A DNA stretch of 64,000 bases, taken from NCBI GenBank assembly GCA_903835385.1, contig CAILMQ010000046.1, forward strand, positions 4,861 to 68,860, written 5' to 3'. A program made the position numbers and the translations under genes. Below, in pieces: positions 3,343 to 27,257 of the stretch (positions are counted from its first letter, which is position 1; each line of letters starts with the position of its first letter). The notes beneath the pieces were generated by a model, which saw only the letters and a list, made by a program, of their open reading frames with translations, ran no database searches and had not been told where the DNA came from. Source of the stretch: an uncultured Candidatus Micrarchaeota archaeon (lineage in GTDB: Archaea; Micrarchaeota; Micrarchaeia; Anstonellales; Bilamarchaeaceae).

Positions 3343-3399
3343 AGCCTGTTTCACCCGTGAGTTGTCATTGCTGGCCAGGTTCGGGCCAGCGTGCCTCGG

Positions 3400-4695: not shown

Positions 4696-4696
4696 G

Positions 4697-7600: not shown

Positions 7601-8155
7601 ATCCGCCGGCTGGACGCGTGCTTCCTTGGCAGACGCGGCAATCACATCCTGCATGAACGGGCGCAAACCCCTGGCGATAACCGGGTCGTTTGATTGGCTG
7701 ATACGGGCAAGCACGTCTTTCCTGAGGTAAAGCCGCTCCAGTATGTCGTAGAGCGAAGCCGTGGTGTCCTTGTCCAGCCTGCCGGTCTTCAGGTGGAGAT
7801 AGACTTTCTTCATTATCTCGAGCGTATCGTCGGCGCTCAGCGCCTTTATCCCTTCCCTGTATTTCTGGCAAAGCGATTTCATTTCCTCGAGGTCGGCGTA
7901 TAAGGAGCGGCCTGCGAGGTTCTTGGCCTCCTTCGCAGCCTGCTTTGAGCGCTTAGCAATGGCTTTATCCATAGCTTTCTGAGCCGCCTTCGCAGGATCG
8001 TAACCGAACACTTTTCTCCCGGCCCGGGTCCAGACTGGAGGCACTGCTTGTGGCGCTGCCTGCGCCTGTGTAGTTGCCTGTGTCGCTGCCTGTGCCGTTG
8101 CATTAGCCGCCGCCTGCTGAGCCTGGTTCGCCATAGCATCACGTCTTTGTTTCAT
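4697..8155 (-). CDS. Giant orphan protein, 1152 aa, Q/A/T low-complexity N-terminus, one central hydrophobic helix
   Basis: ORF track. ATGA overlap with the upstream gene at 8152-8155. Hydrophobic segment RGAIFTILAAGGLALSYQAIKYF is encoded near 6715-6790. No Walker, protease, nuclease or signal-peptide motif seen. Confidence 0.75.
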   Translation of the reverse strand: MKQRRDAMANQAQQAAANATAQAATQATTQAQAAPQAVPPVWTRAGRKVFGYDPAKAAQKAMDKAIAKRSKQAAKEAKNLAGRSLYADLEEMKSLCQKYREGIKALSADDTLEIMKKVYLHLKTGRLDKDTTASLYDILERLYLRKDVLARISQSNDPVIARGLRPFMQDVIAASAKEARVQPADYIQLARRKPDMLKLEDDQIVRMARIIGKGEADPIAVINARFGAGLITRQEHAALMLELNSKNIVPRSAVVQAYNNLARDARTFLRASFQSNDPACVRVLQEIDKGLASGAVASADETIVGIFKNEALREDLRRALGPGSNALLTELSKANTIKEMETALSGIGTAFTAPSTASDLVTLLGAMGQHHDLVATLEARRVLDQSTTEIANAIRAASLGRAKFARGILPAIGENVEAGARGAYRLGKFGASPVAVPSGMALDEFAEARVSGVRARRIARGAIFTILAAGGLALSYQAIKYFTWGKTAREREAAREILAKTWNVGIKIETANKMKGSQVAEDFFTNKLLYSNSSKLADDLSPKNEAQLNALLKRPGLFIHPANINELAAEVDGLIKTMRQQGKSDDEIKEALDDRVTGDWRKKGYFLTPGELFMERFGKELNLTRDMINYLKATVLGANHTELFTLLWVGIRDGSLPRTFAADVASQIYAAISDETGSASAGKTNGQLTLEAIQGQLAKRKTLNYETLPSVRDSLAEAGITSIYLLKTPIPAGSLMDFYDQYATSRDDEKIKAGFQAMLVQYASDPEAAKRLNDFRLGPEEAIYGNVPTIVRRVAEGTLSLDKARAQHTVADEIFARLTPLDESKPGFDRGLIEFVYLNSDAKGNGMLKWLKDHKQHIKNGPELVKEFQRNRSMFIGKVSEGKDSVYEICNTLVSNLQKSYVAEEEARAKWYNEAWSAGNTMVGFKPAPLHERWYVQTTEPFMSWTARDVMPREAGIPAKATPVVTAESEALLRQAIGEALYPGRNETQWKPKEKQVRDAVFKSTVDKALANDDANNQALASAGITVKRGPAGLVIETPRPAAKAESAAFGKFVTDTANQESSVMAVEAALSRSVAAALTAENKQYAAKVTRNLAVMIAQEGIERKNALSERGIKVTQAKKGGRIAVKVPALTEDFREFINNTADRLKQGGK

Positions 8156-9888: not shown

Positions 9889-9910
9889 GGTATAATATGG
9901 AGGGCAAAAG

Positions 9911-9920
9911 AATATAAATA
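9911..9920 (-). promoter_or_regulatory. TATA-like box (TATTTATATT on minus strand) inside the giant operon
   Basis: Only A/T-rich block in the 65-nt gap 9889-9953. Its centre is 27-28 nt from ATG 9888, the spacing seen at many genes in this window. No SD precedes this ATG. Confidence 0.45.
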
Positions 9921-9953
9921 CGGGAGAAAATTGGAAAAAAGAAGGAAATGCCG

Positions 9954-14240: not shown

Positions 14241-14264
14241 AATATGCCCACCTCTAGTAATCGT

Positions 14265-14272
14265 ATTTTATA
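14265..14272 (-). promoter_or_regulatory. TATA box (TATAAAAT on minus strand) upstream of the giant-protein operon
   Basis: Centre is about 28 nt from ATG 14240. A second TTTAAAAA lies at 14297-14305, and a GAGGTGGG SD-like motif at 14247-14254. It is unclear which box is used. Confidence 0.5.
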
Positions 14273-14359
14273 GCAAAAGATGTTTTATCGTAAACGCTTT
14301 TTAAATGTATCTGTATGTGGAAAGAACAGTAAATAGGGCATGTGGCCCGCGATGACGGT

Positions 14360-15763
14360 TCAGGACAGTATCCTTTCGGCCATCTTCTTCGCGTCGAAGC
14401 GCTCGATGTCCTCGTATTTCTGGCCCGTCCCTATGTAGATTATGGGGATGCCCGTGGCCTTGGACACGGAAAGCACCGCGCCGCCCTTGGGGTCGCAGTC
14501 CAGCTTCGTGAGTATCACGCCGTCCACGCCGATTTCGCGGTTGAACGAGGACACCTGGCCGATTATGGACGAGCCCGCTATGGACTCCCCGACATATATC
14601 TTCAGGTCCGGCTTTATGACGCGGTCCATTTTTTTCAATTCGTTGATGAGGTTCACGTTCGTGTCCTGCCTGCCGGCGGTGTCGATGAGCACCGCGTCCA
14701 TGCCATGGGCCCTGGCGTAGTTCACGGCGTCGTAGGCCACGGACGTGGGATCCGAGCCGTATTCCCTTTTTATGAGCCTGACGCCGAGCTTCGTGGCGTG
14801 GATTTCCATCTGTTCTATGGCCGCTGCGCGGAACGTGTCAGCCGCGGCGAACACGACCTTGCAATCGTTCTGCATGAGCATGTGCGCCACCTTGGCGATG
14901 GTCGTTGTTTTTCCTGCCCCGTTTATGCCCAGGAAAATTATTTTCACCGGCTTCTCCTTGGTTCTCACCTGCTCAAGGATGTCCAATGGCTCGCCCACCG
15001 ACATCGTGTCCAGCAGGGTGCTGGCCATGGCGTCCTTCACGAACTGGCTGAGCTGGCCCTTGCCCACCTTCGCGCCAACGAGCTTCTGCGCCAGTTCCTG
15101 CCTTATGGACTCGGCGACGCCCAGCTCCACGTCGCTTTCCAGAAGCTCCAGCTCGAAGTTCTCCAGAAGCGATTTCACGTCGTCCTCGGATATCTCGACC
15201 TCTCGCGTGACGAATGATTTTATCGCCTTCAGGGGGTTGAGCGAGACCTGGGATTTCTTTTCGCGCTCCTTCTCGTCATGGAATTGCGGGAGCGAGACGG
15301 CTGGTTCGGGTTTTTGCGTTTCGGTTTCGGGCTTGGGTTTCGTTTCTGTTTTTATTTCCGGCTGGGGTTGCGGTCTTGGCTTCGCCGCGGCCGCGATTTC
15401 GGGTTTTGGCTTTTGTTTTTCTATTTTCGGCTGTGGTTTTTTTTCGAACGCGATTGCGGGTTTTGGTTTTTCTTTTTCCATTGCGGGCTCTGGCGTTGTT
15501 TCTGTTTTCGGTTCCGGCTTTTGCTTTTCGATTTCCGGCTCCCGCTTCTTTTCGAACGCGATTTCGGATTTTATTTTTTCTTTTTTGATTTCAGGTTTTG
15601 GTTTTATTTCTGGTTCTGGTTCCGGTTTCGTTTCTACTTCCAGTTCTGCCTTAGTTTCAATTTCCGGCCCCGGCTGCGCCTCGGCCTGCTCGGCTTTCGC
15701 CTCCCCCTTGCCACTGAGGCCGTCGATGAACCCGCTTATCTTTTTCTTTAGGAAATCAAACAT
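14360..15763 (-). CDS. ftsY: Signal recognition particle receptor FtsY with about 170-aa Lys/Pro/Glu-rich N-terminal extension
   Basis: SRP54-type GTPase motifs (FLGINGAGKTTTIAKVA, DTAGRQ, TKLD). Sits at the end of the conserved pfdA-ftsY string. Confidence 0.95.
   Translation of the reverse strand: MFDFLKKKISGFIDGLSGKGEAKAEQAEAQPGPEIETKAELEVETKPEPEPEIKPKPEIKKEKIKSEIAFEKKREPEIEKQKPEPKTETTPEPAMEKEKPKPAIAFEKKPQPKIEKQKPKPEIAAAAKPRPQPQPEIKTETKPKPETETQKPEPAVSLPQFHDEKEREKKSQVSLNPLKAIKSFVTREVEISEDDVKSLLENFELELLESDVELGVAESIRQELAQKLVGAKVGKGQLSQFVKDAMASTLLDTMSVGEPLDILEQVRTKEKPVKIIFLGINGAGKTTTIAKVAHMLMQNDCKVVFAAADTFRAAAIEQMEIHATKLGVRLIKREYGSDPTSVAYDAVNYARAHGMDAVLIDTAGRQDTNVNLINELKKMDRVIKPDLKIYVGESIAGSSIIGQVSSFNREIGVDGVILTKLDCDPKGGAVLSVSKATGIPIIYIGTGQKYEDIERFDAKKMAERILS
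15415..15630 (-). repeat. In-frame 108-nt tandem duplication within the FtsY low-complexity N-domain
   Basis: TTTTCGAACGCGATT recurs at 15441 and 15549. The protein units are KSEIAFEKKREPEIEKQKPEPK and KPAIAFEKKPQPKIEKQKPKPE. Confidence 0.7.
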
Positions 15764-15835
15764 GCGCTACACTTCGTAACAGAAGCCAGATACCACACGG
15801 CTTGCGGAGCATCGGCCAGACCTAAGACGACCACA

Positions 15836-16013
15836 TGCCCGCTTCTTTGCGGGCACAATCATGTTGCCGAGCAACATGGTGCAATCGCATTCGTCGCAAC
15901 GAATGCGGTGCGCAATGAACGAAACGTCGTTCATTGCCGCCCCATTGTTCGAATCGTCGAACAATAGGGTGGGTCCCATTGTCCGAATCGTCGGACAATG
16001 CGGACGCACCCGT
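15836..16013. other. Array of six consecutive perfect hairpins / palindromes in the pfdA-ftsY spacer
   Basis: Stems read directly from the sequence. 15836-15855: 7 bp. 15860-15878: 7 bp. 15884-15909: 8 perfect bp, up to 11 with extension and wobble. 15912-15937: 11 bp. 15944-15965: 9 bp. 15977-16000: 10 bp, extendable to 15967-16011 with one C.C mismatch and an unpaired c16001. Loops are 4-6 nt. Confidence 0.8.
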
Positions 16014-16066
16014 AGAAAACAGAAAGAAAACAGCGGATCACCGGCTAATGAGAAGACAGAAATCAG
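16006..16066 (-). repeat. Dispersed 3'-flank element, copy 1 (immediately after the pfdA stop)
   Basis: Shares the core ACAGAAAGAAAACAGCG...ACCGGCTAATGAGAA...GAAATCAG with copies at 29821, 40688 and 57857 (reverse). The pyrimidine-rich strand is the gene-sense strand. Confidence 0.65.
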
Positions 16067-16509
16067 ATATAGTCTTCCTTGACCCCGGCTTCCACCTGGT
16101 TGTTGAGCCTGAGCTGCTGCTCGACATCCTGGAGATTGAGCATTACCTCGCGGAGCTTCCTGTTTATCTTCTCGAACTCCTCGTTGAGCCTTGTCACGGC
16201 CTGGCGCGTGGCGTCCACCCTGCGCTGGAGCTCGACGGCAGCTTCGCCCTTTTCCATGTCAATGGCGAACTCGGCGCCTATGGGCATTATCACGCGGGTG
16301 TCCTTTATCTCGGACCTCACGAAAACCCCGCCGCCGATGGGGGCGAGTATCTGCTCGGCCTTGAGCCCGTTGACGGACTGCACCGCGCTGGTGAGGTCCA
16401 TGGTGGTCAGCGAGACCCTTTCCATCTCCCTGCGGAGCATGGTGAGCTGCTCGCGGTAGACCGCGACCTCGTAATTCATCCTTACCCTGTTTTCCTCGAG
16501 CGAGGCCAT
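16063..16509 (-). CDS. pfdA: Prefoldin alpha subunit
   Basis: Length 148 aa and a coiled coil / beta-hairpin / coiled coil layout. Conserved position between LX and ftsY. TGA-ATG abutment with the upstream gene. Confidence 0.85.
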   Translation of the reverse strand: MASLEENRVRMNYEVAVYREQLTMLRREMERVSLTTMDLTSAVQSVNGLKAEQILAPIGGGVFVRSEIKDTRVIMPIGAEFAIDMEKGEAAVELQRRVDATRQAVTRLNEEFEKINRKLREVMLNLQDVEQQLRLNNQVEAGVKEDYI

Positions 16510-16692
16510 TCATCCACCTGATTTCTCGACGCGCTCTATTTCCATGCGGGAGCGCTTCACGCCGTTATTGGAACCGAAAAGCGCATAAGCCTTTTCCCGC
16601 GCCGCGTTCTCGGTCTCTGCGTCCAGGACCTTGGAGAACTTCCGCTCGCCGCGGCCGAGTTTTATTTTTCCGGAAACGTTCCATTTCATCAA
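16510..16692 (-). CDS. rplX: Ribosomal protein LX / L18Ae (eL20 family)
   Basis: 60 aa, ...KFSKVLDAETENAAREKAYALFGSNNGVKRSRMEI. Conserved position between aIF6 and pfdA. Confidence 0.8.
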   Translation of the reverse strand: MMKWNVSGKIKLGRGERKFSKVLDAETENAAREKAYALFGSNNGVKRSRMEIERVEKSGG

Positions 16693-16707
16693 ATCACCCC
16701 GAATGTT

Positions 16708-17370
16708 TCAAACATAACCCAATGCCGATTCCACGCGCCCAAGCTCGTGGGCGCTCGTCGCCTCGCCGGCGGCATAGCCGTGGCTGTTCGCGACCACTCC
16801 GAAGGAAACGAAGCCCGTTCCCATGTTCACGGTCCCGCGCTCGCCCTTCACCTTGAACGCGGACTCCAGCGTTTTCATGTCATCGTCGCTGGCCGCATAG
16901 TGCGCCAGGAACCCCCTGTTGCCCGCGAGGCAGGACGAGCCGACGGTGGCATAGTCGCCTATGCGCATGGGAACGAGCTCTATTCCCAGCGCGTCCTCCA
17001 TCTTCCTGCGCTCCGTGGCGTGTATGTGCGGGTTTACCACCCCGCCCTTGTCATTTATGGCAAGGTTGTTGCCGTGGGCGTTCTGCCTCTCCGGCGAATG
17101 ATAGACGTTCAGGCCGAAGGACTTGAACACCGCGGCCTCCTGGGGCGAGGCGATGTTCGGCATTATGACGCCGTTGTTGTTCATCGCGAGATAGACGCCA
17201 ACGAGGTTCGAGTCCCCCACCGAAACCCTGCGCACTTCCGCCTTGAGGCTTCCATGAAGGCCCGCGAGGAGCTTGTCCGGGCAGTCCAGCGGGGCAAGCA
17301 CCATGCTGTCGCTCGCCTTGACGAACATGCCTATCCACGGATTCCCGTAATATGAGCACCTCTCGCGCAT
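16708..17370 (-). CDS. eif6: Translation initiation factor 6 (aIF6)
   Basis: Pentein-repeat sequence (YYGNPWIGMF..., NLVGVY..., NAHGNN...). Start moved to Met35 of the ORF-track call, 7 nt after the L31e stop. Confidence 0.9.
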   Translation of the reverse strand: MRERCSYYGNPWIGMFVKASDSMVLAPLDCPDKLLAGLHGSLKAEVRRVSVGDSNLVGVYLAMNNNGVIMPNIASPQEAAVFKSFGLNVYHSPERQNAHGNNLAINDKGGVVNPHIHATERRKMEDALGIELVPMRIGDYATVGSSCLAGNRGFLAHYAASDDDMKTLESAFKVKGERGTVNMGTGFVSFGVVANSHGYAAGEATSAHELGRVESALGYV

Positions 17371-17377
17371 CTTGGAT

Positions 17378-17869
17378 TCACTTCTGCTTTTTCGCTTCTG
17401 TTGCAAGAGACGGGACGACAGCGGGTTTCGCCGCCGGCGCCTGGGGCCTCGCCGCAGGGGCCGTGCTGGCAACCGGTTTGGCTGCCGCGGGCGTTGCGGG
17501 CTTTGCCGCGGTGGCCGCAGTGGCTGCCGGCTTGGCTGCAGGAGCAGTTGCCGTCTTCGCCTTTTCTTCGGCTTCTTTCTTCACTTTTTTCTCGTCCTCT
17601 GTCGCCTCGTCCGGCAGATAGACGTGGGTGACGCCCTCCTTCCTTATGGCGCGGACCTTCACCCTGCGCGGCGGCTTCTGGATGCTGCGCTCCCACAGCT
17701 TGCTGTTGAGCGCGTTGCTCAGGAGCACGCTGTCGATTTCGGTTTTCATGTGCCTTGATATGAACTGCCTCAGCACCTTCACCGCGCGCGGAACCCTGTT
17801 CGTGCGCTTGTATTCGAAAGCCGCTGCCAGCGGCACCATGTATATCCTCTCGAGTTTTTCCTCTGCCAT
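17378..17869 (-). CDS. rpl31e: Ribosomal protein L31e with about 75-aa Ala/Lys/Pro-rich C-terminal extension
   Basis: The N-terminal 88 aa match eL31 (ERIYMVPL...PRAVKVLRQFISRHMK...WERSIQKPPRRVKV). The tail is KTATAPAAKPAATAATAAKPATPAAAKP... Confidence 0.9.
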   Translation of the reverse strand: MAEEKLERIYMVPLAAAFEYKRTNRVPRAVKVLRQFISRHMKTEIDSVLLSNALNSKLWERSIQKPPRRVKVRAIRKEGVTHVYLPDEATEDEKKVKKEAEEKAKTATAPAAKPAATAATAAKPATPAAAKPVASTAPAARPQAPAAKPAVVPSLATEAKKQK

Positions 17870-17873
17870 GGAA

Positions 17874-18038
17874 TCATCCCTCGTCCTTTATCCTGAGCTT
17901 GTCAGTGCGCCAGGCCCGCTTGCTGCGGTTCTGGGTGACCTTCCGTTTGGTCCGTATCATCACGAATGCGGGGAGCCTCCTGCTCTTCCTGCATGCCTTC
18001 GCGAGCCTTATCTTCTTCGCAAGCGATTTCTTTCCCAT
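17874..18038 (-). CDS. rpl39e: Ribosomal protein L39e (54 aa; below the ORF-track size cutoff)
   Basis: Manual translation gives MGKKSLAKKIRLAKACRKSRRLPAFVMIRTKRKVTQNRSKRAWRTDKLRIKDEG. Expected position between PDCD5-like and L31e, 4 nt from the L31e start. Confidence 0.9.
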   Translation of the reverse strand: MGKKSLAKKIRLAKACRKSRRLPAFVMIRTKRKVTQNRSKRAWRTDKLRIKDEG

Positions 18039-18059
18039 AGGACATCCACCTTCGTTTCC

Positions 18060-18368
18060 TCATTTCTTATGGAACGTTATTGACGTCTCCTTCTCCGTCC
18101 GCGCCTTGAGCGCCCGCAGCACCGTGAGGAGCTCCGCCTCCCTTATGGGGCGGCCGATGCGCTTGCACGCCATGAGCACCTGCTGCGCGGCCATGACGTA
18201 GAGCTCCTTGTTGGCCATCGCGACGTTGGTCATGCGGTCATAGGCGGCCGGGTCCAGCGCCCCGCGGAGCGCCTCCCTGAGCTGCTCCTCCGCGGCCTTG
18301 GACTCTGCGGCCTTGTGCCTTTCGGCCTGCCTCCGCTTCCTCGCCCCCTCCAGTTCGTCCTCTTCCAT
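18060..18368 (-). CDS. PDCD5/TFAR19-like DNA-binding protein
   Basis: ...ALDPAAYDRMTNVAMANKELYVMAAQQVLMACKRIGRPIREAELLTVL... Conserved position after S19e. Start moved to MEEDELEG. Confidence 0.8.
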   Translation of the reverse strand: MEEDELEGARKRRQAERHKAAESKAAEEQLREALRGALDPAAYDRMTNVAMANKELYVMAAQQVLMACKRIGRPIREAELLTVLRALKARTEKETSITFHKK

Positions 18369-18381
18369 TCTAATCCCCAGG

Positions 18382-18804
18382 TCATTCCTGGGTGCGGGCG
18401 ACTTCCTTCGCCGCCTTGTCAAGGAGCGCCTGGCCCTTGGCCGTTAGCTTCCTGCCGCCAGTCTTCTGCTTCGCGAGCAGGCCCGCCTTCTCCAGCTGCT
18501 GCATGGCCTTGCGTATGGTCGAGCCTCCGGAGGGCCTGTGGTGCTCTGGCCGCACGCCCCGGATTTTCCTGCCGCCGTAGTGGCGCCTGAGCCTGTTGGT
18601 GCCGACCGCGCCCCGCACATAGGCGTGGCGCATTATGGAAGCGCACCTCACGTACCAGAAGTCCGCCTGCTCCGGAGGCCTGTCCTTCTGGCTGCCGGTC
18701 TTGACGAGCCCGACGAACGCGGGCTTCTCGAGCTTCATGGCCTTGAGCTTGTTGGCCACGCTCTCCATGAGCCGGTTTGTGTCCACATCTAATGCTGTAA
18801 CCAT
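18382..18804 (-). CDS. rps19e: Ribosomal protein S19e
   Basis: Typical eS19 sequence (FWYVRCASIMRHAY..., RRHYGG...). GAGGTGA SD upstream. Confidence 0.9.
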   Translation of the reverse strand: MVTALDVDTNRLMESVANKLKAMKLEKPAFVGLVKTGSQKDRPPEQADFWYVRCASIMRHAYVRGAVGTNRLRRHYGGRKIRGVRPEHHRPSGGSTIRKAMQQLEKAGLLAKQKTGGRKLTAKGQALLDKAAKEVARTQE

Positions 18805-18867
18805 TGGTTCACCTCATAAGCATAAGCCAGATTACGTTGCACCGTAATTAGCTGTAACAAACAACGA

Positions 18868-18921
18868 GCACAAAATTTTGCGAAATTTTGTGCGACAACA
18901 TGGTAAATCGAATTTACCATG
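18868..18921 (-). terminator. Two consecutive perfect hairpins downstream of the transporter gene
   Basis: GCACAAAATTT-tgcg-AAATTTTGTGC (18868-18893) and CATGGTAAAT-cga-ATTTACCATG (18899-18921). They begin 36 nt after the stop at 18957. Confidence 0.5.
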
Positions 18922-18956
18922 CAGAAAATTAATGCGGATAATGGTATTTAAATGTA

Positions 18957-20111
18957 TCATTCGACGCGGATGCGGCGCTTCTTCAGCTCTATGACCAGCG
19001 GATAGGCTGCCATGGCGAGGGCGAGGAACGCGAGCGAGAGGTGGATGCTGCCCAGCAGCACCGTGGAAAGGAGCACGAGCGCGACTCCCAGGACCCTGCC
19101 GTGGTTGAGCAGCCACTCCCTGCCTATGAACACGCCTTCCAGGGACTCCTGCCTGTTGTCCATGAGGATGGCGGTCGTGAACGGATAGAAGAGCGTGGAC
19201 AGGAAGTTGCGGAGCGATGCCGCCGCGGACCAGAGGAACGCGGTGCCGGCGAAAGACGCCAGGGCCGTTGTTATGGCGAGACCGCTTCCGAAGAGGGACA
19301 CGTACTTCTTCCTTTTGCGCGATTCGTCCGAAAGCCTGCTGACGACGAAGGACGCGAGCACCGAGAACAGCGTGGTGACCGACAGGTAGGCGCCCAGGTC
19401 CCCGGGTTTTGTGAAATAAAGCAGCGGTATCACCAGGATGAGCGAGGTTATGCCTCCGCCGTATATGCCTTCCAGGAACATCAGCGTCCTGAAGCCCTTG
19501 AGGCCGGCGAGGCAGTCCTTGAGCCCGAAACAGAACTCCCGCTTCCCGAGCGCAAGGAGCGCGAGCGGGATTATCAGCGCGTACACAATGGCTGCGAGAG
19601 CGAATACCAGGGGAAATCCGTAAGCCGATGCAAGCATGCCCCCGATTACTGGAAGGAAAACCCCGAATAGGGGATTGACGGCGAAATACAGCGAGCCGTG
19701 CGTCGCCTCCCTTCCTTTGCCGAACTCGAAGTACATGACGTTGAACGGCACCCAGAACAGGAAGCTGCACATTCCCATGAGGAACGAGGCGAGGTAGAGG
19801 ATCGATTCCGAAGGCGCGGCCAGCGCGAGCAGGGCGTAGGCCGATGCCTGGACAACGACTCCGGATAAGAGCACTGCCCGCATGTCCAGCTTCCTTTTGT
19901 CCAGGAGGTGGATGACGAACACCGGCGCCGCGGCCCAGAAGAGGTAGGATATCACGAGCGCGGGGAACGCGACGCCCGATTTGAAATAGAACAGGTTGAC
20001 GAAGCTTCCGCCGAGCACGCCCGCCGCGTTCCAGAGCGCATAGGCTGCGAGCAGCCGCAGCAGTGCGCCTCTTCCTTTGCCCTGGTCGTCGTGCATGGGG
20101 AATGGTTTCAT
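18957..20111 (-). CDS. Polytopic membrane transporter (MFS-like)
   Basis: About 12 hydrophobic segments. Family assignment is tentative. Start moved from the TTG at 20156 to ATG 20111, 25 nt from an A/T box. Confidence 0.55.
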   Translation of the reverse strand: MKPFPMHDDQGKGRGALLRLLAAYALWNAAGVLGGSFVNLFYFKSGVAFPALVISYLFWAAAPVFVIHLLDKRKLDMRAVLLSGVVVQASAYALLALAAPSESILYLASFLMGMCSFLFWVPFNVMYFEFGKGREATHGSLYFAVNPLFGVFLPVIGGMLASAYGFPLVFALAAIVYALIIPLALLALGKREFCFGLKDCLAGLKGFRTLMFLEGIYGGGITSLILVIPLLYFTKPGDLGAYLSVTTLFSVLASFVVSRLSDESRKRKKYVSLFGSGLAITTALASFAGTAFLWSAAASLRNFLSTLFYPFTTAILMDNRQESLEGVFIGREWLLNHGRVLGVALVLLSTVLLGSIHLSLAFLALAMAAYPLVIELKKRRIRVE

Positions 20112-20120
20112 CCTTGGATT

Positions 20121-20140
20121 ATTTAAAGCGTTTATTACAT
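20121..20140. promoter_or_regulatory. Divergent A/T-rich promoter block (ATTTAAAGCGTTTATTACAT)
   Basis: TTTAAAG is centred about 25 nt from ATG 20150 (plus strand). TAATAAA on the minus strand is centred about 25 nt from ATG 20111. Confidence 0.45.
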
Positions 20141-20149
20141 CAGATGGGC

Positions 20150-20467
20150 ATGGCAACCAGTGCGCCGGGGCAGGAAAAGAGGGCAGCCGTTTCCGAAGGG
20201 AAGCTGGACGAGATAGAATCGGACACTCTCAGGAACGCGGCCAGGACGGTCTCGATCATAGAGAATGCCATTTCAGCATGGAACGCAGCGAAGGTGAAGC
20301 CCAGGAACATGGCAAGCGCCCTTGAGAGGCTGAAGAGATTCCGCACCGCGCTCGTGAGATGGGGCGCGGAATGCGCCGTGCTCCGCGCCGGGCGCGCTGA
20401 CATGGAACACCGCGTGGGCATGCTACGCGAGTTCGTTGAAATCTGCTACGCCTACGAGAACGCATGA
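20150..20467 (+). CDS. Small helical orphan protein (about 105 aa), coupled to the 1613-aa gene
   Basis: In-frame ATGs at 20144 and 20150. The stop overlaps the next ATG (GCATGA at 20462-20467). The first 27 codons of the ORF-track call overlap the divergent gene and are rejected. Confidence 0.55.
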   Translation: MATSAPGQEKRAAVSEGKLDEIESDTLRNAARTVSIIENAISAWNAAKVKPRNMASALERLKRFRTALVRWGAECAVLRAGRADMEHRVGMLREFVEICYAYENA

Positions 20468-23400
20468 AGGGTGTGCATTTGGCCGAAGCCGAGAAACAGA
20501 AACCCAAGGCAACGAAGGAGGCGGAGCGCGCGCTCCAGAGGGCCGAGATGCAGGCAAAAATGCTGAGGGCGGTCCAGCCGGCGAGGATAGCGGCAGGCGT
20601 CCCGACCGTGGCAGAGGCTGCGGCAAAGCGTGCCGTGAACGCGGCCATGGGGACCGTGCGCCAGGCGGAGCGCGTTGACGAATCCCTCGGCCTCGGGATA
20701 TTCCATCCTGAAACCGCGCGCGTGACGCTCCCGTCCGGGCTTGTGGAGGAGCGGATACAGCTTGAGAAGGTGCGCGTGCAGGCCGTGCACGGTGACGTGC
20801 CGAAGCAGGAGTTCGAGAAATTGAGACGGCACTATGCGCACGGGCTTGCGGTTTTTCTCGCCGGAGAGGCTGAACGGCGCATTTCCGACCCCGTGGAGAA
20901 CCTCAGGCGCGAACTCGGCTCCATACGCGAGGTCGCGGTCGGGTTCAGGAGGGAGATGCGCGATGGCGGCCTGGTGGACATGCACGCCCCGGAAAGGTCC
21001 GACGGCAACTGGCTTTACCGGAAACTCGGCGCCATCGTCCATGATATAGACGCGCTGCGCGACGAAACCGGGAAGGCAAAGCCCGGGAGCCTGCCGGATG
21101 AACTGGCCGCACGGTTGCAAAAACTTTATGTTGAGTACCGGCAGGCCGTGAACGTGATTTACCATCCGGCGAAGCTGCTGCTTGCCGAGCTGAAGAAGAA
21201 CGGGGGCCTCGTGGCCTACCTCAGGGAATCCGAAGGCTCGGACCATTCCCTGAGCAAGGTTTCCGCGCTGGAGGACCTGGAACGCGCAAGAGGCCACCTT
21301 ATGGAGGCGCTCCGCATAATGCAGTACGCGCCGGAAAGGATGGCGGACGCGAGGAAGGAGTTCAGGGCCGCGGCCGAAGACAGGACACAGGCGCTCACCC
21401 GGCTTTATATCAACGAGAACAGCATCGCGGACAACGTGAGGCTCGCGGCAGGCATGACCTACGACCCCACGGCGCGGTTCGCGTTTTACAGGGACGCGCT
21501 CGTGGCGTTATACGACGCCTCGGCGCACGGAAAGGGGTTTGACAAGAATTTCGCGGCACTGGGCGCGGCATTGCTGCATCTCGAGACCTGCATGGTCACT
21601 TCTGACAAAAAGCTTTTCGCATCGGGCGAGGCAAAACTCCAGCAGGGCGTAATCGCGAATTCGGAAAAGCTGGTCGCGGACTACTCTTCGCTCCTCTCGG
21701 GAGGGAAGGCGGCGCTTACGGAAAAGGACGCCGCGGCGATTTCGGCGGCGGTGAAAAGCGACAGCAGCATCCTCTATGCGCGCATAAGGCGCGCCAGGAG
21801 GATTGACCAGCTGGCGGAGCTTGGAATGAGCCTGATTCCGGTCATCGGCTCGGCGTTCATCACTGCGTCTGTGATAAAGGGCGCGGCGCGGGATTACGCG
21901 ACAACCGGCGAGATTTCGCCAATGACCGGAGTAATGGCGGCAACCGCGGTGCTCGGGCTGCGGGGCGGACTTGCGAAAGAAGCCTTTGCCGCGATTGAAC
22001 AGTCCCTCCTACTCAGGCTTTCGGAATTCGGCGCCGCGGGCGCGCTCACCGTGCCGCAGGCAAGGCATGTGGCTGAATCCTGGGCAGCCTACCGTGTGGC
22101 GCCGAAGCAGGAACGGCGGGAGCGCCAGGACGCGCTCGAGGAGGCTATCTTCAGCTCGCTTTCCCTTGCGGTTCCGGTTTTGGGGGGCGCGGTGCATGCA
22201 AAGGCAGCGAAATTCATGGAATCGCGCGGGGAGATCGCCATGCCTGTGAAAGCCAGGCCTAAAAATCCGGCGAAAAGCGGGCCTAAGATGCCGCCGCAGA
22301 GCGAGGCGCTGAGGCTGCGCATTGCCATGGCAGACATGGCGCGCGCGGTGGTGAAGGGTGCGGAGGGCCTGCCCTTCGGAATCACCGCGGAAAAGGTCGC
22401 GGCCGTCAACAGGCTGCGCGCGCAAATCACGCCCCTGGCAGAGGCGAAATTCGCCCGCGGCCAGCAACTGACCCAGGTGGAGATGGCCGCCCTGATTGCA
22501 AAGGAAAGCGAGACTTTAGGGCTGCCGAAAAAAGGGCAGTGGAGAAACGAGGACTTGGGCGCGATAAAGGTCCTTATGGCTGAAACAGAAAGGCTCGAGG
22601 CAAAGGATGCGGCGCGGCGCCAGCGCTCTGTCCCCATGGCCGAGGCTCCGGTGGCTGCGGAAAGGACGCGCGCGGCGCCTGCCGAAGCCTCGGCGCTTGT
22701 GGCAGGCAGCCTTAGCGGCGACGGCAGCGCGCTCGCGATGAACGTCGCGGTGCTCACTGCGCAACCCACTGTGGCCGGAAAGACGCTTCACGAGACCGTG
22801 CTGGCCAACGGCGAGGCGCTGCATTCCGCGGTGGAGCGCATGCGCGGCAACATCGAAACCGCGGCGCCGGTCTTGAGGTCCCTGGACAACGCGGCCAGGG
22901 CCGCTGAAAGCTGGGCTTTCCGCACTTTCAGGAGGGCGAATCCGCTGGCGAGGGAGGACTATGCCCGCATAGTGGTTTCCATTGACAAGGGCAAGACATG
23001 GCTGCTCAACTCCCTCAGCGACCGCGGGGAGTACGGCGACCTGGGGCTCGTCGTGTTTTTCAGGGGCGCGTCAAAGGCAGTGAAGGACCTCGGCATCGAG
23101 GGCGTCAGCATAGTGCGCACCGGGGCGGACGACGCCACCATAGTGATTTCCGAGCTCGGCTTCCGGCGGCTCGGGGAGAGATTCGGGGCCAAAACCGAAA
23201 ATGATGCCATCGGCATCGTAATCGGGCGCGTCAGGGCCGAGGCCCGCACGGCCGCAGCGCAGATGGGAATAACCTCGCCGCAGCTCATTGGCGCGCTGGC
23301 TGATTTCACCGGCATCGGGGACGCGCTCTCGCGGGACAGAACGAACGGAGAGTGGATGCTGGCAAGCAGCGGCAGGAGATACAGGACCATGGAGGCCGCG

Positions 23401-25305
23401 GTGGGCGCAATAGAGTCCAGGTCCCTGGTGGAAAAGGTGCGCGCGACCGACCCTGTTGCGGCAGTGCGCCTTGAGCAGGCGGCCACTGCCTTTGACAGGA
23501 ATCAGGTTCCGAAAACCAAGGGCGTGAACCGCCTTAACGAGGCTGAAGGCAAGCCCGTTGATTCTTCGGGCGCGCCGGTCCGGATAGACGAGGCGGTCAA
23601 TTTCCGCGTCGCATTCCAGGAGGGCATGAGAACCGCGTTCATGCGCGGGGCCGAGGCAAAGGGGAAGGGGGTCACCGCGGTGGAGAAAAACCTGATAGGC
23701 CCGAGCGTAACGAACAGCGTGGCGGGAAGCGCGTTCACGGACGGGCTTTCCGCGCATTACGCCGCCGCGTTCGCGAGGGCGGCTGCAGAGGCGAAGCTTT
23801 CCGGCAAAATGGCCATTTATGAAACCGGGCCCATGGCGTTCGGCTTCAGCTTCAACGGCCCGGTGGGCAGCGACACAATGGCACGCGTTCTCGGCAGGAG
23901 CGAGCAGCTGTTCCTGCAAAGCGTGCCCGGGGAGCTCGGGATAAAGGATGTCAGGACGTTCAGGACCGCGACCGTGAGGGAGGGCCGCTACCGCGTGGCG
24001 GACGCGCTTTTCGGCGAGCCGGCCGAGGCTGTCAGCCCCCAGGCTGACATGAATGCGAAGAGGCTCGTATCCGCCATACATGTTGCGGACGAGGGAGCGC
24101 TCCGCGATTATCTTTCAACGAACGGGGTTGACCGGCAGACTGCGGACGCGGTGATAAAGGCAAGGGGGGAAAAATGGCTGCGTGGCATAGAGGATTTGCG
24201 GCCCGCGCTGCTCAAGAACGGCGCGACCGGTCCCGGGCTGGACAGGCTTTTCAGGATTTACGCGCTGCCCCACAGGATACTGGCACGTGCCGCGGAACCA
24301 GGGCCCGCGCCCGCTGTCACCCCAAGGAAAGCAACTGCCCCCGGCACTCGGGAAACTTACAGGCAGGCGTTCGTGCGGGGATACGGACAGAGGCGGGGGA
24401 TTGGCGGCGGGATAGGGATGCTTGGCGCCGGAGATGCTGACGCGCTCTACCATGGGATAGAGGGCGGAGTGGCTGCCGTGAGGGAACTGCGCATCAAGAG
24501 AAGCGCGATGAAAAAGGCCGGGGGCGACCGCGAACCCGCCGTCAGGCAAGCCCAGGCGAAGAAAAGCGAAAGCGCGGGAGAGGCACGGGCAGTGAAGGCA
24601 GATGCCGAAACCGTGTTTGGACAGATTGCCGAAGCAGAAGGCGCGTCATCCAGGGAAGACCTTCTCACAGAGTATGGCCCGGATTTCGTGAGAAAACGCC
24701 TCACCGAGCTGGGGTATGGCAATGAGGACATAAGGAAAGCCCTTTCGCAGCATTCCGAAGCGGCATACGAGCATTTCGCCCGGCATGTGAAAGGCAGGGA
24801 GGACGCCGGGCTCAAAGCGGCTATTGGAAGCGGCGGGCGCCGCTCGGGCAAAGAGTACCTGGCCGGGCAGTACTATCCGGAATCGGTGGCTGAGGCGATT
24901 GTGGAGGGATACCCTGCTGAACTGGAACTCCACAGGCAGAGCGTTACGAGGATTCCGGCAAGGCCGCAGAGGGACCTCCCCCGGGCTGCTTTGCCACTTA
25001 TCAGCAGCGATGAGACCGCGCAGATTTTAACGAATGGCTTTGGTTTCAAAGACATCGGAAGCAGCAAGGAACACGACCTCCAGCGGCCCAAAAGAGATGA
25101 AAAGGGCAAAATCATCCCCGGCCAGTACACCGGTAAAATACCCATCCCAAGAAACCGGGATGCGGTGGCCCTGGGGACGCTGGATGCCATCTTGAAAGAG
25201 TCGGGGATAACACGCAGGGATTTCCTCCAGAAGGCGCTTGACCTAGGCATTTTGACGAGAAAACAGGCAAGGGAATGGGGGCTTGAGAAGTCAGCGGCGC
25301 CTTAG
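20464..25305 (+). CDS. Giant orphan protein, 1613 aa, with hydrophobic segments, a possible degenerate palm (GGDEF-like) motif and an HhH motif
   Basis: ORF track. Hydrophobic segments near 21826-21885, 21913-21975 and 22144-22200. Motif details are given in the findings. Antisense ORFs are shadow frames. Confidence 0.75.
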   Translation: MKGVHLAEAEKQKPKATKEAERALQRAEMQAKMLRAVQPARIAAGVPTVAEAAAKRAVNAAMGTVRQAERVDESLGLGIFHPETARVTLPSGLVEERIQLEKVRVQAVHGDVPKQEFEKLRRHYAHGLAVFLAGEAERRISDPVENLRRELGSIREVAVGFRREMRDGGLVDMHAPERSDGNWLYRKLGAIVHDIDALRDETGKAKPGSLPDELAARLQKLYVEYRQAVNVIYHPAKLLLAELKKNGGLVAYLRESEGSDHSLSKVSALEDLERARGHLMEALRIMQYAPERMADARKEFRAAAEDRTQALTRLYINENSIADNVRLAAGMTYDPTARFAFYRDALVALYDASAHGKGFDKNFAALGAALLHLETCMVTSDKKLFASGEAKLQQGVIANSEKLVADYSSLLSGGKAALTEKDAAAISAAVKSDSSILYARIRRARRIDQLAELGMSLIPVIGSAFITASVIKGAARDYATTGEISPMTGVMAATAVLGLRGGLAKEAFAAIEQSLLLRLSEFGAAGALTVPQARHVAESWAAYRVAPKQERRERQDALEEAIFSSLSLAVPVLGGAVHAKAAKFMESRGEIAMPVKARPKNPAKSGPKMPPQSEALRLRIAMADMARAVVKGAEGLPFGITAEKVAAVNRLRAQITPLAEAKFARGQQLTQVEMAALIAKESETLGLPKKGQWRNEDLGAIKVLMAETERLEAKDAARRQRSVPMAEAPVAAERTRAAPAEASALVAGSLSGDGSALAMNVAVLTAQPTVAGKTLHETVLANGEALHSAVERMRGNIETAAPVLRSLDNAARAAESWAFRTFRRANPLAREDYARIVVSIDKGKTWLLNSLSDRGEYGDLGLVVFFRGASKAVKDLGIEGVSIVRTGADDATIVISELGFRRLGERFGAKTENDAIGIVIGRVRAEARTAAAQMGITSPQLIGALADFTGIGDALSRDRTNGEWMLASSGRRYRTMEAAVGAIESRSLVEKVRATDPVAAVRLEQAATAFDRNQVPKTKGVNRLNEAEGKPVDSSGAPVRIDEAVNFRVAFQEGMRTAFMRGAEAKGKGVTAVEKNLIGPSVTNSVAGSAFTDGLSAHYAAAFARAAAEAKLSGKMAIYETGPMAFGFSFNGPVGSDTMARVLGRSEQLFLQSVPGELGIKDVRTFRTATVREGRYRVADALFGEPAEAVSPQADMNAKRLVSAIHVADEGALRDYLSTNGVDRQTADAVIKARGEKWLRGIEDLRPALLKNGATGPGLDRLFRIYALPHRILARAAEPGPAPAVTPRKATAPGTRETYRQAFVRGYGQRRGIGGGIGMLGAGDADALYHGIEGGVAAVRELRIKRSAMKKAGGDREPAVRQAQAKKSESAGEARAVKADAETVFGQIAEAEGASSREDLLTEYGPDFVRKRLTELGYGNEDIRKALSQHSEAAYEHFARHVKGREDAGLKAAIGSGGRRSGKEYLAGQYYPESVAEAIVEGYPAELELHRQSVTRIPARPQRDLPRAALPLISSDETAQILTNGFGFKDIGSSKEHDLQRPKRDEKGKIIPGQYTGKIPIPRNRDAVALGTLDAILKESGITRRDFLQKALDLGILTRKQAREWGLEKSAAP

Positions 25306-25758
25306 GCCCATCGCGCGTATTTCTTTTTCCCACAGCCGCAATGACTGCATGTCCCTTTTCGTTTCCCTGTTTTTCTCAGAAAGCCCCCGGTCGAATTCCG
25401 AAAAAAGAGAGCCGATATCATTGGATTTTAGCTGGCCGGATGAATCGAAAAAAGAGAGCTTGAGAACGGCCATGTAATCCCTGCTGTCCATCCGGGCCCA
25501 CATTTCGAGGCAGCGGATTGCGATTCTCCTGGTTTTCGGAGGGCACAGGCGCATGTGATCGATAATCTTCTGGTAATCTGCCGGCACTGCGAGAGAGCGA
25601 AGCACTTGTTCCGCGCTTGCTGGAAGCGAGTCCGCGGCGAGCTGTGCCACCAGGGTAAGCCTGCGGAGGTCCTTTTGTATCAGGAATCTATCATCCGCTG
25701 TCCTTCCGGCGTGGTAATGACGCACACCCTGCCGTATCGCTTGATGGGTAGGTTTCAT
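25291..25758 (-). CDS. Orphan protein, 155 aa, convergent with the giant gene and overlapping its 3' end by 15 nt
   Basis: Protein-like composition. TATA-like CTTAAACTTT (25781-25790) is centred about 27 nt upstream of the ATG. Confidence 0.5.
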   Translation of the reverse strand: MKPTHQAIRQGVRHYHAGRTADDRFLIQKDLRRLTLVAQLAADSLPASAEQVLRSLAVPADYQKIIDHMRLCPPKTRRIAIRCLEMWARMDSRDYMAVLKLSFFDSSGQLKSNDIGSLFSEFDRGLSEKNRETKRDMQSLRLWEKEIRAMGLRRR

Positions 25759-25834
25759 AGCAATTGTGATTATGTGTAGTAAAGTTTAAGAATATGGGCT
25801 TGTCTGCGAGAACCGGCTTGGGCGGACCGCGCGG

Positions 25835-26491
25835 CTATTTGTACCTGAGCACCACGAAAAGATGGTCCTTGTCAAAGGGTTCCAGCCCGTACTTTTCCAG
25901 CACGTCGAATTTTTTTTCAAGTATGGCAAGCACGCCCTCGAAAACCTCCTTCGGCTTTTTCGTGACGTCTATGCTCTGGCTTTTTATGGCAATCATGGCG
26001 ATTCCGCCTTTTTTCAGGAACATCTCAGCGTTCATGACGAGTATGTCAGCCTGGTCCGGCTGCGCAACGTCCTGGTAGAGCGAGTCCACCTCGCCCACGT
26101 CCTTGTACTGCCCCGGCTGCCGCGCGTCCGCATGTATCGGGATGATGTTTTTCCTGATGTCGCAGAGCGCAAGCAGGGACTTCATGCACTGTGGGGCGAT
26201 TTCCACCGCGAACAGCTCGCCCTTTTCGCCGATGATGTCCGAGAGGTGGGAGACCGTCGTCCCTGTGGATGCGCCCAGATAGAGGATTTTGCTCCCCTCC
26301 GCGAACGGGAAGTTCTTCAGGCCTTTTCGTATCGCGGCAGCGAGCTTGGAGCGGAACGGGTCCCAGGTGCGGAGTTCGCCCTCGCCTGATTTCAGGAGCC
26401 GCTCGTCGTACACCCTTTTTCCCGGAACCGCGTTGCGCGTGGCGAGCGTGCGCCAGTCCGGCCTGAATACGCCTTCAAAGATTTTTTCCAT
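25835..26491 (-). CDS. flpA: Fibrillarin (C/D-box RNP 2'-O-methyltransferase)
   Basis: SAM-binding motif ILYLGASTGTTVSHLSDI, plus FRSKLAAAI and PDQADIL. Confidence 0.95.
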   Translation of the reverse strand: MEKIFEGVFRPDWRTLATRNAVPGKRVYDERLLKSGEGELRTWDPFRSKLAAAIRKGLKNFPFAEGSKILYLGASTGTTVSHLSDIIGEKGELFAVEIAPQCMKSLLALCDIRKNIIPIHADARQPGQYKDVGEVDSLYQDVAQPDQADILVMNAEMFLKKGGIAMIAIKSQSIDVTKKPKEVFEGVLAILEKKFDVLEKYGLEPFDKDHLFVVLRYK

Positions 26492-26675
26492 TTTGAACCG
26501 GGATTATTTCCTTGCGCCTGTTTTTTAAACTGTTTGGTTTTAATTAATAGTAATGTATGTAGGACATCCGGAACTCGCGTATTTGGCAGCCTGTCGCCAG
26601 ACAGGACAGAAGCGCGGGAAAGGCCCCAGGCGCATTGGGGTTGCAATTAAAGCTTTTTGCAGGAAAGTAGGATGC

Positions 26676-27257
26676 ATGCAAGAGCCGAAGGCGCCCCGCG
26701 CTGCGGGAGACAAAACCGGTCCTTTTGGAAACATAAGCACTCCGAACCTTGAGCTTGCGTCTCGGGCAATGCTCGTGGCGGAAGTTTACGGAATTGCACC
26801 GAAGGAAGGAACAATCGGAAAGTTCAGGGCCGCGGGGAGGGCTGTGGCCGAATCGCGGCTGCCTGAGCCGAAAAAAGCGCTGTTTGCCGGATATGTTGAA
26901 CTTGCTGGCAAGAATGCGAAAACCAGCTTCGCAATGCTCCAGGCAGTGGAAGCAATCACATCCTACCTGGCCGGCGAGGTATATGAAAAGGAGCTTGACT
27001 TTGAATTCAGGCTCATGAAAGCCTGGTGCTCTGGAAACATTACCGGCTTCCTGAAGGACGAGGCTGAAAAAGCGAAGTCAAAACCAGCAAGCGAGATGGC
27101 GGATGCCGCGCTCACCAAAAGCGAAATAATGCAGGCGTTCGCGGCTGCCCAGTTCAGGCGCTTTTACACCAGAAGCATAGTGGAAATCGCAAAAAGGAAC
27201 AGGGACCTGCGCAGCTGCACGGAAACCATACGCGCGGCGCCTGATGTCCAAGGATAA
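26676..27257 (+). CDS. Orphan protein (about 193 aa)
   Basis: ORF-track frame, start moved to Met42, which has an AGGAAAG purine tract and an A/T box about 29 nt upstream. No known motif. Confidence 0.45.
   Translation: MQEPKAPRAAGDKTGPFGNISTPNLELASRAMLVAEVYGIAPKEGTIGKFRAAGRAVAESRLPEPKKALFAGYVELAGKNAKTSFAMLQAVEAITSYLAGEVYEKELDFEFRLMKAWCSGNITGFLKDEAEKAKSKPASEMADAALTKSEIMQAFAAAQFRRFYTRSIVEIAKRNRDLRSCTETIRAAPDVQG

Follow-up and report, generated by a model that had tools for sequence, protein, structure and literature searches.

Polymorphic toxin systems such as CDI/CdiA, Rhs and LXG are built from a conserved N-terminus and exchangeable enzymatic C-termini that meet at a sharp junction, and they are marked by a co-varying cognate small gene at the toxin end, extra immunity-like paralogues, and cassette replacement between near-identical strains. 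Corresponding traits, with putative enzymes at the C-termini and candidate immunity-like paralogues in some loci, were found in the family of a locus of an uncultured Candidatus Micrarchaeota (DPANN) archaeon, located at positions 20121-25758 of a 64,000-nucleotide (nt) stretch of contig CAILMQ010000046.1 (the whole stretch is called the window below), in which a small helical gene and a giant gene of 1613 amino acids (aa) are met by a convergent gene of 155 aa. Unlike the described systems, the Micrarchaeota cassette is accompanied by no secretion system, and it has neither a signal peptide nor a trafficking domain of a known kind. It also differs in a cognate gene that is usually convergent and overlapping rather than co-directional, and in its families of N-terminal modules, partners, middle modules and downstream genes, which were unmatched in Pfam, NCBIfam and the sequences of the PDB. 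LXG toxins of the type VII secretion system (T7SS) have small helical Lap/WXG-like partners, and effectors of the type VI secretion system (T6SS) with N-terminal transmembrane helices have Eag chaperones. The Micrarchaeota locus resembles both in its small helical upstream gene, its coupled large effector, its N-terminal hydrophobic helices and its C-terminal toxin, which is putative here. No sequence or profile similarity to the T7SS/T6SS partners was found for the small protein or the giant, and no T6SS or contractile-injection genes were found nearby; archaea are not known to have a T7SS.

Among archaeal proteins, predicted polymorphic toxins were reviewed previously (PMC6393860), the SPEARE giant proteins of Nanohaloarchaeota were described as membrane-anchored DPANN proteins with enzymatic domains (PMC6642349), and a hypervariable Ig-domain module was described in Thermococcales (PMC8416519). 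The SPEARE proteins and the Ig module are similar to the present family as lineage-specific giant or hypervariable archaeal proteins proposed for cell-cell interaction or conflict. They differ in domain content, since no protease, adhesin, restriction-enzyme or Ig domains were detected by Pfam in the giant, and they are without the layout of small partner, giant and convergent cognate gene. No description of the giant/partner family was found in the searchable literature. The principle is known; the components and the lineage are new. From the constant chassis, the exchangeable C-termini, the co-varying neighbour and the replacement of whole cassettes, the logic of polymorphic toxins and their immunity proteins is proposed for this locus, which is on balance probably one copy of a polymorphic effector cassette with its cognate antidote, the two being exchanged together.

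Exchange of the giant's tail together with the downstream gene

The three genes of the locus and its variable interval were arranged as follows (relatives' loci are designated by L numbers, proteins by P numbers, tail types by T and families of neighbouring genes by D).

20150-20467, plus strand: small helical partner, 105 aa (open reading frame, ORF, and homologue searches)
20464-25305, plus strand: giant modular protein, 1613 aa (ORF and orthologue P0002)
25291-25758, minus strand: convergent 155-aa gene, family D0 (ORF and 159-aa orthologue in L001)
24283-25762, no strand: hypervariable cassette, comprising the tail of the giant (aa ~1274-1613) and the whole 155-aa gene (blastn against L005)

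A blastn comparison with the syntenic locus L005 revealed colinear DNA at about 80% identity over positions 16059-24282 and from 25763 onward. The interval that separates these blocks had no detectable DNA homology and coincides exactly with the tail of the giant plus the complete 155-aa gene. The G+C content at third codon positions was 0.65 in the tail and 0.62 in the 155-aa gene, compared with 0.75-0.78 in the body of the giant, the small partner and fibrillarin. The flanking genes were 76-91% identical to those of the syntenic relative, the rest of the giant 57-80%, and the 155-aa gene 39%. The same kind of replacement was observed between two nearly identical strains. The DNA of L021 and L014 was 98.6% identical from the left flank through the small partner gene to about codon 783 of the giant, and 99.6% identical from the D2 gene rightward, so that D2 lay on the conserved side of the right-hand boundary, whereas the interval between was unrelated: in L021 a convergent gene of 180 aa follows the middle module and a T6 tail, and in L014 a convergent gene of 271 aa follows a T2 tail. 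In L007, an N-terminal module of 65-69% identity was joined to a different tail.

To compare tails with neighbours, the tails of 20 family proteins were clustered and compared with the genes that lie downstream in those loci whose context was known. The tails fell into nine unrelated clusters. The tail of P0016 carried a RelA_SpoT domain (Pfam, 1.6e-15), the only domain that Pfam detected in the giants and downstream genes of the relatives, and searches of the PDB sequences with the giant, the profiles A4, A8 and A13, P0003 and P0015 returned nothing meaningful. In every testable locus, without exception, the type of tail matched the family of the downstream gene.

T1 (HicA-like) tail with D0: window and L001 (2 loci)
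T2 tail with D1: L002, L007, L014, L017, L022 and L023/24 (6 loci)
T6 tail with D4: L012 and L021 (2 loci)
Tails with one unique neighbour each: L011 (P0016, with its RelA_SpoT tail) and L013 (tail of its giant)

No relationship was detected between the 155-aa protein (D0) and downstream genes that accompany other types of tail. A kinship of D0 and D1, suggested by eye from a shared "P-x-x-RRI" look, was dropped; the two families were taken as unrelated because hhalign gave no support. In seven loci the downstream gene abutted the stop of the giant tail-to-tail, with spacings from a 24-nt overlap to a 1-nt gap, and this layout and the adjacent small partner persisted down to about 25% identity. 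The D1 genes were present in two copies in L002 and in three in L017, and no such array was found in the window. These results indicate that the three genes form one unit, with the convergent gene as the cognate neighbour of the giant. The constant chassis would consist of the small partner and an N-terminal module with three hydrophobic helices, which would anchor the protein in the membrane or insert it there, and the exchangeable payload would be the C-terminal part, which here comprises a HicA-like tail preceded by two palm-like units in tandem. Payload and partner gene would be inherited and exchanged together by recombination, and the 155-aa protein would most likely protect the producer by neutralising the tail, as an antidote or immunity protein.

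A role outside conflict was also considered, in which the giant would be a lineage-specific membrane scaffold or signalling enzyme (a cyclase or kinase hub in cell contact, division or metabolite exchange) and its tail and neighbour an enzyme-regulator pair. Such a role would fit a cassette that is widespread in the phylum beside ribosomal, fibrillarin, FtsY, FEN1, CDC48 and H+-PPase genes, the giants P0007 and P0014, which were without any tail, and the recurrent D2 gene, which was not variable. However, a housekeeping role hardly explains why strains whose flanks are 98.6-99.6% identical have had the whole C-terminal part and the neighbouring gene replaced, and toxin-type domains were among the nine unrelated tail types. 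We regard this explanation as quite improbable.

The T2 tails (P0003, P0005, P0008, P0012, P0013, P0015, P0023, P0024 and the giants of L007 and L017) were the commonest type. By eye, they seem to contain a Gly-rich loop, VxxK, and DxHxxN ... IDxD, a pattern that may point to PI3/4-kinases or HipA-like kinases; Pfam and the PDB sequences gave nothing for these tails.

Organization and integrity of the three genes

The preliminary description, made from the sequence of the window alone, had reported the overlap of the small and giant ORFs, the opposite-strand ORF across the giant's last 15 nt, and an A/T block in the spacer shared with a divergent transporter gene, and all of these were found in place. 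The small ORF ends in ...GCATGA, and the ATG of the giant overlaps its TGA (ATGA). The giant stops at TAG (25303-25305), and the convergent ORF stops at TCA (25291-25293), which is TGA on the minus strand, so that it shares the final 15 nt of the giant gene. The A/T block was located within the 53 nt that separate the small partner gene from the divergent MFS gene.

20121-20140, no strand: A/T block ATTATTTAAAGCGTTTATTA, candidate archaeal TATA element or elements (read in the sequence)

The TTTAAA of ATTATTTAAAGCGTTTATTA lies about 26 nt 5' of the ATG at 20150, a position from which the block may act as a promoter; a bacterial promoter/terminator scan was uninformative for archaeal DNA.

The 4.8-kb length of the giant ORF is far above chance expectation. 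No interruption was found in relatives: the ORF was intact at 1603 aa in the syntenic relative, and all three genes were kept as ORFs elsewhere. Three short database proteins that align with portions of the giant, P0004 (387 aa), P0006 and P0010, are fragmentary because their contigs are short, and P0004 contains a stretch of ~60 aa resembling a frameshifted P0002; they are no evidence of interrupted genes. The neighbours are archaeal genes, including those for fibrillarin, L31e, eIF6 and FtsY. None of the three window proteins was matched in Pfam, NCBIfam, PADLOC, PHROGs or the PDB sequences, and none was assigned to a characterised family, so that the earlier statement that nothing in them is recognisable holds at this level. 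Four features had been overlooked: that the C-terminal tail is exchangeable, that the middle module is palm-like, that the end resembles HicA when viewed through the orthologue, and that a fourth gene recurs, here at 26553-27257.

The HicA-like tail and its putative cognate gene

The body of the giant and its variable tail are joined at a Gly-rich patch, which had been noticed before and was located as listed below.

24391-24441, plus strand: Gly-rich patch RRGIGGGIGMLGAGDAD, aa 1310-1326 (read in the sequence)
24982-25218, plus strand: HicA-like C-terminal domain, aa ~1507-1585 (via orthologue P0002 and a joint profile)

The identity between the giant and P0002 was 57-80% over aa 1-1300 and dropped from 78% to 25-34% at about aa 1300; the two tails were still homologous (E 8e-15). 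The last ~55 aa of P0002 matched Pfam HicA_toxin (PF07927) with an E value of 6.5e-6 and 26.6 bits, just below the cut-off of 27, and its tail also matched a PHROG "toxin" family (E 1.4e-5). A joint profile of both tails found 1WHZ, a HicA-family structure, as its best PDB match (E 9.4e-4). The HicA catalytic histidine was present in P0002 ("TSHS"). An AlphaFold2 model of the tail had a predicted local distance difference test (pLDDT) score of 49 and was unusable, and the Foldseek matches obtained from it were meaningless. Through the orthologue, the tail would be expected to have the fold of the HicA mRNA-cleaving toxins, an alpha-beta-beta-beta-alpha arrangement like that of double-stranded-RNA-binding domains.

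The 155-aa gene has a 159-aa counterpart in L001 at the same tail-to-tail position, with 39% identity, and is a candidate for a cognate antidote, immunity protein or regulator of the HicA-like tail. In comparison with HicA of the HicAB type II systems (PF07927, 1WHZ), the likeness consists of the C-terminal match of P0002 and the match of the joint profile to 1WHZ. The differences are that the domain here makes up the last ~5% of a predicted 1613-aa membrane protein and contains a 13-aa insertion, that the neighbour is not HicB-like, and that the tail of the window protein is sub-threshold.

The palm-like middle module

Homologues of the region between the N-terminal module and the tail were found in 11 other proteins of an exhaustive search, and the region was modelled by AlphaFold2 from a 10-sequence alignment (pLDDT 78; predicted template modelling score, pTM, 0.71). 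The model contained two consecutive beta-alpha-beta-beta-alpha-beta units followed by helices.

22786-24318, plus strand: middle module, aa ~775-1285, two tandem palm-like units and then a helical part (alignment A4, AlphaFold2)
22963-23337, plus strand: palm-like unit 1, aa 834-958 (order of secondary structure in the model, invariant columns of A4)
23590-23967, plus strand: palm-like unit 2, aa 1043-1168 (alignment A4, model)

Palm-domain cyclases and polymerases bind their metals through ligands placed where strand 1 ends and within the hairpin of strands 2 and 3. In unit 1, the invariant residues Asp841-Lys842 close strand 1 (nt 22984-22989), and the invariant Gly887 and Asp889 of "GADD" ("GDE" in relatives) lie in the strand 2-3 hairpin (nt 23122-23133); these residues correspond to columns D72, K73, G118 and D120 of A4. 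Unit 2 was without the canonical acidic residues and looks degenerate, because strand 1 has Arg and the hairpin has Gly-Pro at their positions; it is probably non-catalytic, as judged from the model.

Foldseek searches against the PDB and viral models gave weak matches throughout (E ≥ 0.013, template modelling (TM) score ≤ 0.40), and the top ones were nearly all palm-domain enzymes: Cas10/Cmr2/Csm1, soluble adenylyl cyclase, Abi-P2 polymerase, GGDEF, Thg1-like, RNA-dependent RNA polymerases and herpesvirus primase subunits, with the best Foldseek probabilities (0.94-0.96) for GGDEF and Thg1-like proteins. Pfam had no match at E ≤ 10 for any of 10 members, and nothing was found among the PDB sequences. 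Membership of the GGDEF family was dropped at the level of sequence after hhalign against three approximate GGDEF sequences gave a probability of 0.5%. The module is therefore proposed, with moderate confidence, to be palm-like and to stand outside any known family. Its predicted fold is similar to that of the tandem palm enzymes (Cas10/Cmr2, soluble adenylyl cyclase, GGDEF and Thg1-like) in its two units, with acidic residues in the first and a degenerate second, and it differs from them in sequence, with no Pfam or PDB similarity and weak fold matches. The module may be a nucleotidyltransferase or a cyclase. By eye, aa ~1215-1270 may resemble a ComEA-like helix-hairpin-helix.

The N-terminal module, the hydrophobic helices and the small partner

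The boundaries of the modules were set by local domain mapping among the relatives. The N-terminal module was 57-59% identical in all three close proteins, even where their remainders differ, and was detected in P0012, P0013, P0015, P0016, P0018, P0021, P0023 and others; it had no Pfam, NCBIfam or PADLOC match. A family motif, SDKKLFASGEAKLQQ, is located at aa 380-394 (nt 21601-21645), and the hydrophobic helices come after it.

20464-22263, plus strand: N-terminal module, aa 1 to ~600, helical (identity across relatives)
21802-21891, plus strand: hydrophobic helix 1, aa 447-476 (Kyte-Doolittle peak 1.94; family-mean segment)
21910-21978, plus strand: hydrophobic helix 2, aa 483-505, the weakest of the three (family-mean hydropathy peak 1.2-1.3)
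22141-22206, plus strand: hydrophobic helix 3, aa 560-581 (Kyte-Doolittle peak 1.61; family-mean segment)

Three hydrophobic stretches had been proposed in the preliminary description, and the hydropathy analysis recovered them at these positions, which were conserved in 13 family members. Membrane association is plausible because the three helices are conserved across the family. As predicted from the sequence, three clear helices would place the payload on the side of the membrane opposite the N-terminus, and a weak fourth, Gly-rich segment, if a helix, would place both on the same side. The giant of L017 (4785-13730, plus strand), with more than 3316 aa, has a helical N-terminus of ~1800 aa ahead of its hydrophobic helices and ends in a tail of type T2; the profile of the N-terminal module does not match its N-terminal part, which has diverged too far.

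The small partner was found directly upstream of the giant in every locus examined (about 14 loci; inspected were the window, L001/5, L002/3/4/6, L009-L014, L017, L019 and L021-L024), with spacings from a 4-nt overlap to a 55-nt gap, in agreement with the coupling of the two genes first seen in the window. The identity of the partner was 63-82% in close loci and 22-36% in distant ones. A profile search returned 43 homologue clusters, with lengths of 86-113 aa in the family, an invariant Trp71 and a nearly invariant Cys99, and no relative was found in Pfam or the PDB. The partner is probably a chaperone or adaptor of the N-terminal module.

Delivery or intracellular defence

Several observations weigh against an exported effector with a cognate immunity protein. 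Hydropathy analysis revealed no N-terminal hydrophobic signal or signal peptide in the giant, and no known trafficking domain in the giant or secretion-system gene in the flanks was found. The window tail is HicA-like only through its orthologue: by itself it had no Pfam match even at E ≤ 10, and the window protein contains no toxin domain that the searches could detect. In a MAFFT alignment the position of the catalytic histidine was occupied by Lys, an alternative His being present in "GSSKEHDLQRP", ahead of the 13-aa insertion at the catalytic strand. The 155-aa protein had no Pfam, NCBIfam or PADLOC match and was not similar to HicB or to known immunity families, and the candidate immunity gene was convergent in most loci and co-directional only in L011. 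The palm assignment combines an AlphaFold2 model with Foldseek matches of E ≥ 0.013 and TM ≤ 0.4 and a non-significant GGDEF profile. Furthermore, the cassette was apparently single-copy in each locus and located among housekeeping genes, which fits a lineage-specific cellular function as well.

Because no secretion determinants were found, an intracellular role in defence is the main rival. The giant would then be a membrane-anchored system of the abortive-infection or toxin-antitoxin kind: the N-terminal module would sense an event at the membrane, such as virus entry, the palm module and tail would be directed against the cell itself, the convergent gene would be an antitoxin, and nothing would be exported. 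Swapping of effectors along with a small cognate gene is typical of defence systems too, both HicA and RelA_SpoT belong to the classical toxins of toxin-antitoxin and abortive-infection systems, ParE-type and MNT/HEPN pairs adjoin the cassette in several loci, and the weak fourth helix, if real, would leave both large domains in the cytoplasm. On the other hand, PADLOC matched no component, and the cassette was located mostly amid housekeeping genes rather than in defence islands. The dedicated small partner on a membrane module and the extra D1 paralogues fit secreted polymorphic toxins better. The middle module was missing from many members, and a signalling relay from palm to tail therefore cannot be general. 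On balance, intracellular defence is somewhat unlikely.

If the locus is a polymorphic effector cassette, its target may be a competing Micrarchaeota cell, the archaeal host, to which cell contact would give access, or the cell that produces it. A bolder version, which we consider unlikely, is that the locus encodes an effector system of an unknown type, in which a polymorphic enzyme payload, joined to a chassis that inserts into membranes and has a small chaperone of its own, would enter the host archaeon or rival symbionts at the membrane contact or fusion sites formed by DPANN cells, without a classical secretion machine, the neighbouring gene would protect the producer, and the palm module would represent a new family of nucleotide-signal synthases or polymerases.

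Relatives and phyletic range

A word-indexed protein search with the giant returned three proteins: the window protein, P0002 (1603 aa, 59% identity across 98% of the query) and P0003 (1247 aa, 57% identity over the first 38% of the query only, aa 1 to ~640, and unrelated beyond). The genome scan placed P0002 on a 1.57-Mb chromosome of an uncultured Candidatus Micrarchaeota metagenome-assembled genome (OY970229.1) and P0003 in a second Micrarchaeota metagenome-assembled genome. The locus of P0002 was syntenic with the window (MFS gene, small ORF, giant, convergent 159-aa ORF and fibrillarin, plus an extra 542-aa gene), and that of P0003 had another genomic context. An exhaustive phmmer search with aa 1-1200 returned 22 proteins and recovered relatives that the full-length word-indexed search had missed. 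Both the N-terminal and middle modules were present in P0007, P0008, P0009, P0011, P0014 and the giants of L009 and L010; the N-terminal module alone was present in P0003, P0012, P0013, P0015, P0016, P0018, P0021, P0023 and the giant of L013; and the middle module stood behind a different N-terminus in P0005, P0017 and P0019. No paralogue of either module was found elsewhere in the window. All members named in their sources were annotated as "hypothetical protein" of Candidatus Micrarchaeota or Bilamarchaeaceae, and the family has so far been seen only in Micrarchaeota.

Neighbouring genes

A further gene recurred near the giants.

26553-27257, plus strand: 234-aa ORF, family D2 (homologues in other loci)

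In the window, fibrillarin (25835-26491, minus strand) sits between the 155-aa gene and this ORF, for which Pfam had no match. D2 was found one or two genes downstream of the giant in L001, L009, L010, L012, L014 and L017, and in L009 it formed three internal repeats within a 486-aa protein. D2 may be a fourth component of the system.

Other differences between loci were observed at the edges of the cassette. At 15422-17050 (plus strand) of L001, and at the same coordinates of L005, an extra 542-aa Cys-rich orphan gene (CFGCCPRC) lies between the 159-aa gene and fibrillarin. The corresponding spacer of the window measures 77 nt, so that insertions, too, occur at the right edge of the variable cassette. 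Before the giant of L017, at 921-4365 (minus strand), are six ORFs of 170-200 aa (three D1, one D2 and two D3), an array that resembles arrays of orphan immunity genes. Small toxin-antitoxin pairs, either a ParE_toxin gene with a 73-aa partner or MNT (NTP_transf_2) with HEPN, were located a gene or two from the cassette in L014 (7535-8005), L021 (2447-2917), L012 (3779-4764) and L022 (3362-4334). Upstream of the P0003 cassette in L002 (2755-9056, minus strand), small orphan genes surround a 500-aa DUF87/AAA_10 (HerA/VirB4-like) ATPase; this run, of which the window has no equivalent, may be an integrated element or a transfer apparatus. In L022, a CDC48-like AAA ATPase beside the cassette (15500-16931, minus strand) carries an intein with a LAGLIDADG endonuclease, and no intein was found in L012, L014 or L021. 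The FtsY protein has 619 aa in L001 (4312-6171, minus strand), with an N-terminal prefoldin-like match, and 467 aa in the window (14360-15763, minus strand); DNA homology is broken at 15328-15684, and the N-terminal extension differs between the two genomes.

Relation to the 14-kb operon

The giant pair and a five-gene, 14-kb operon of the window (3400-15763) had been suggested to share one biology as large membrane-associated assemblies. Membrane association of the giant remains plausible from its conserved helices, but a joint assembly was not borne out. A distance of 5 kb separates the two loci, both in the window and in L001/L005, which is syntenic with it, and both loci are orphan and fast-evolving. 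The operon proteins of 1152 aa and 578 aa (window 4697-9888, minus strand, compared with L001 9-4200) were 52% and 66% identical to their syntenic orthologues, and the operon is judged to be fast-evolving too because nearby housekeeping genes were 76-91% identical. However, the operon and giant proteins have no domains in common, and no homology to the N-terminal or middle module was found in the operon. The two loci are transcribed divergently, with ribosomal-protein genes between them. Homologues of the operon were found beside the giant only in the sister genome L001/L005; none was found within the 8-10 kb flanks of the other loci among L002-L020, in their gene tables or in those of L021-L024, where the cassette lies amid unrelated housekeeping genes. 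One large assembly of both loci is accordingly very improbable.

Implications for DPANN biology

DPANN archaea are abundant, host-dependent and molecularly almost uncharacterised, also in how they attach to, exploit and compete for their hosts. The family described here is widespread in one DPANN phylum, takes up ~5 kb of genomes of ~1.5 Mb (one complete relative has 1.57 Mb), and bears the recombination signature of conflict systems. Its N-terminal module, palm-like module, small partner and families D0, D1, D2 and D4 were unmatched in the searched libraries. The logic of polymorphic toxins has so far been seen mainly in bacteria and a few archaea, and the family would extend it to DPANN. Given the conflict-type recombination signature and the uniform annotation as hypothetical proteins, two concrete pairs therefore stand out, namely the tail with its neighbouring gene and the small partner with the N-terminal module. 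Delivery of the payload at contact sites, if true, would provide a direct molecular handle on how DPANN symbionts manipulate their hosts or fight over them.

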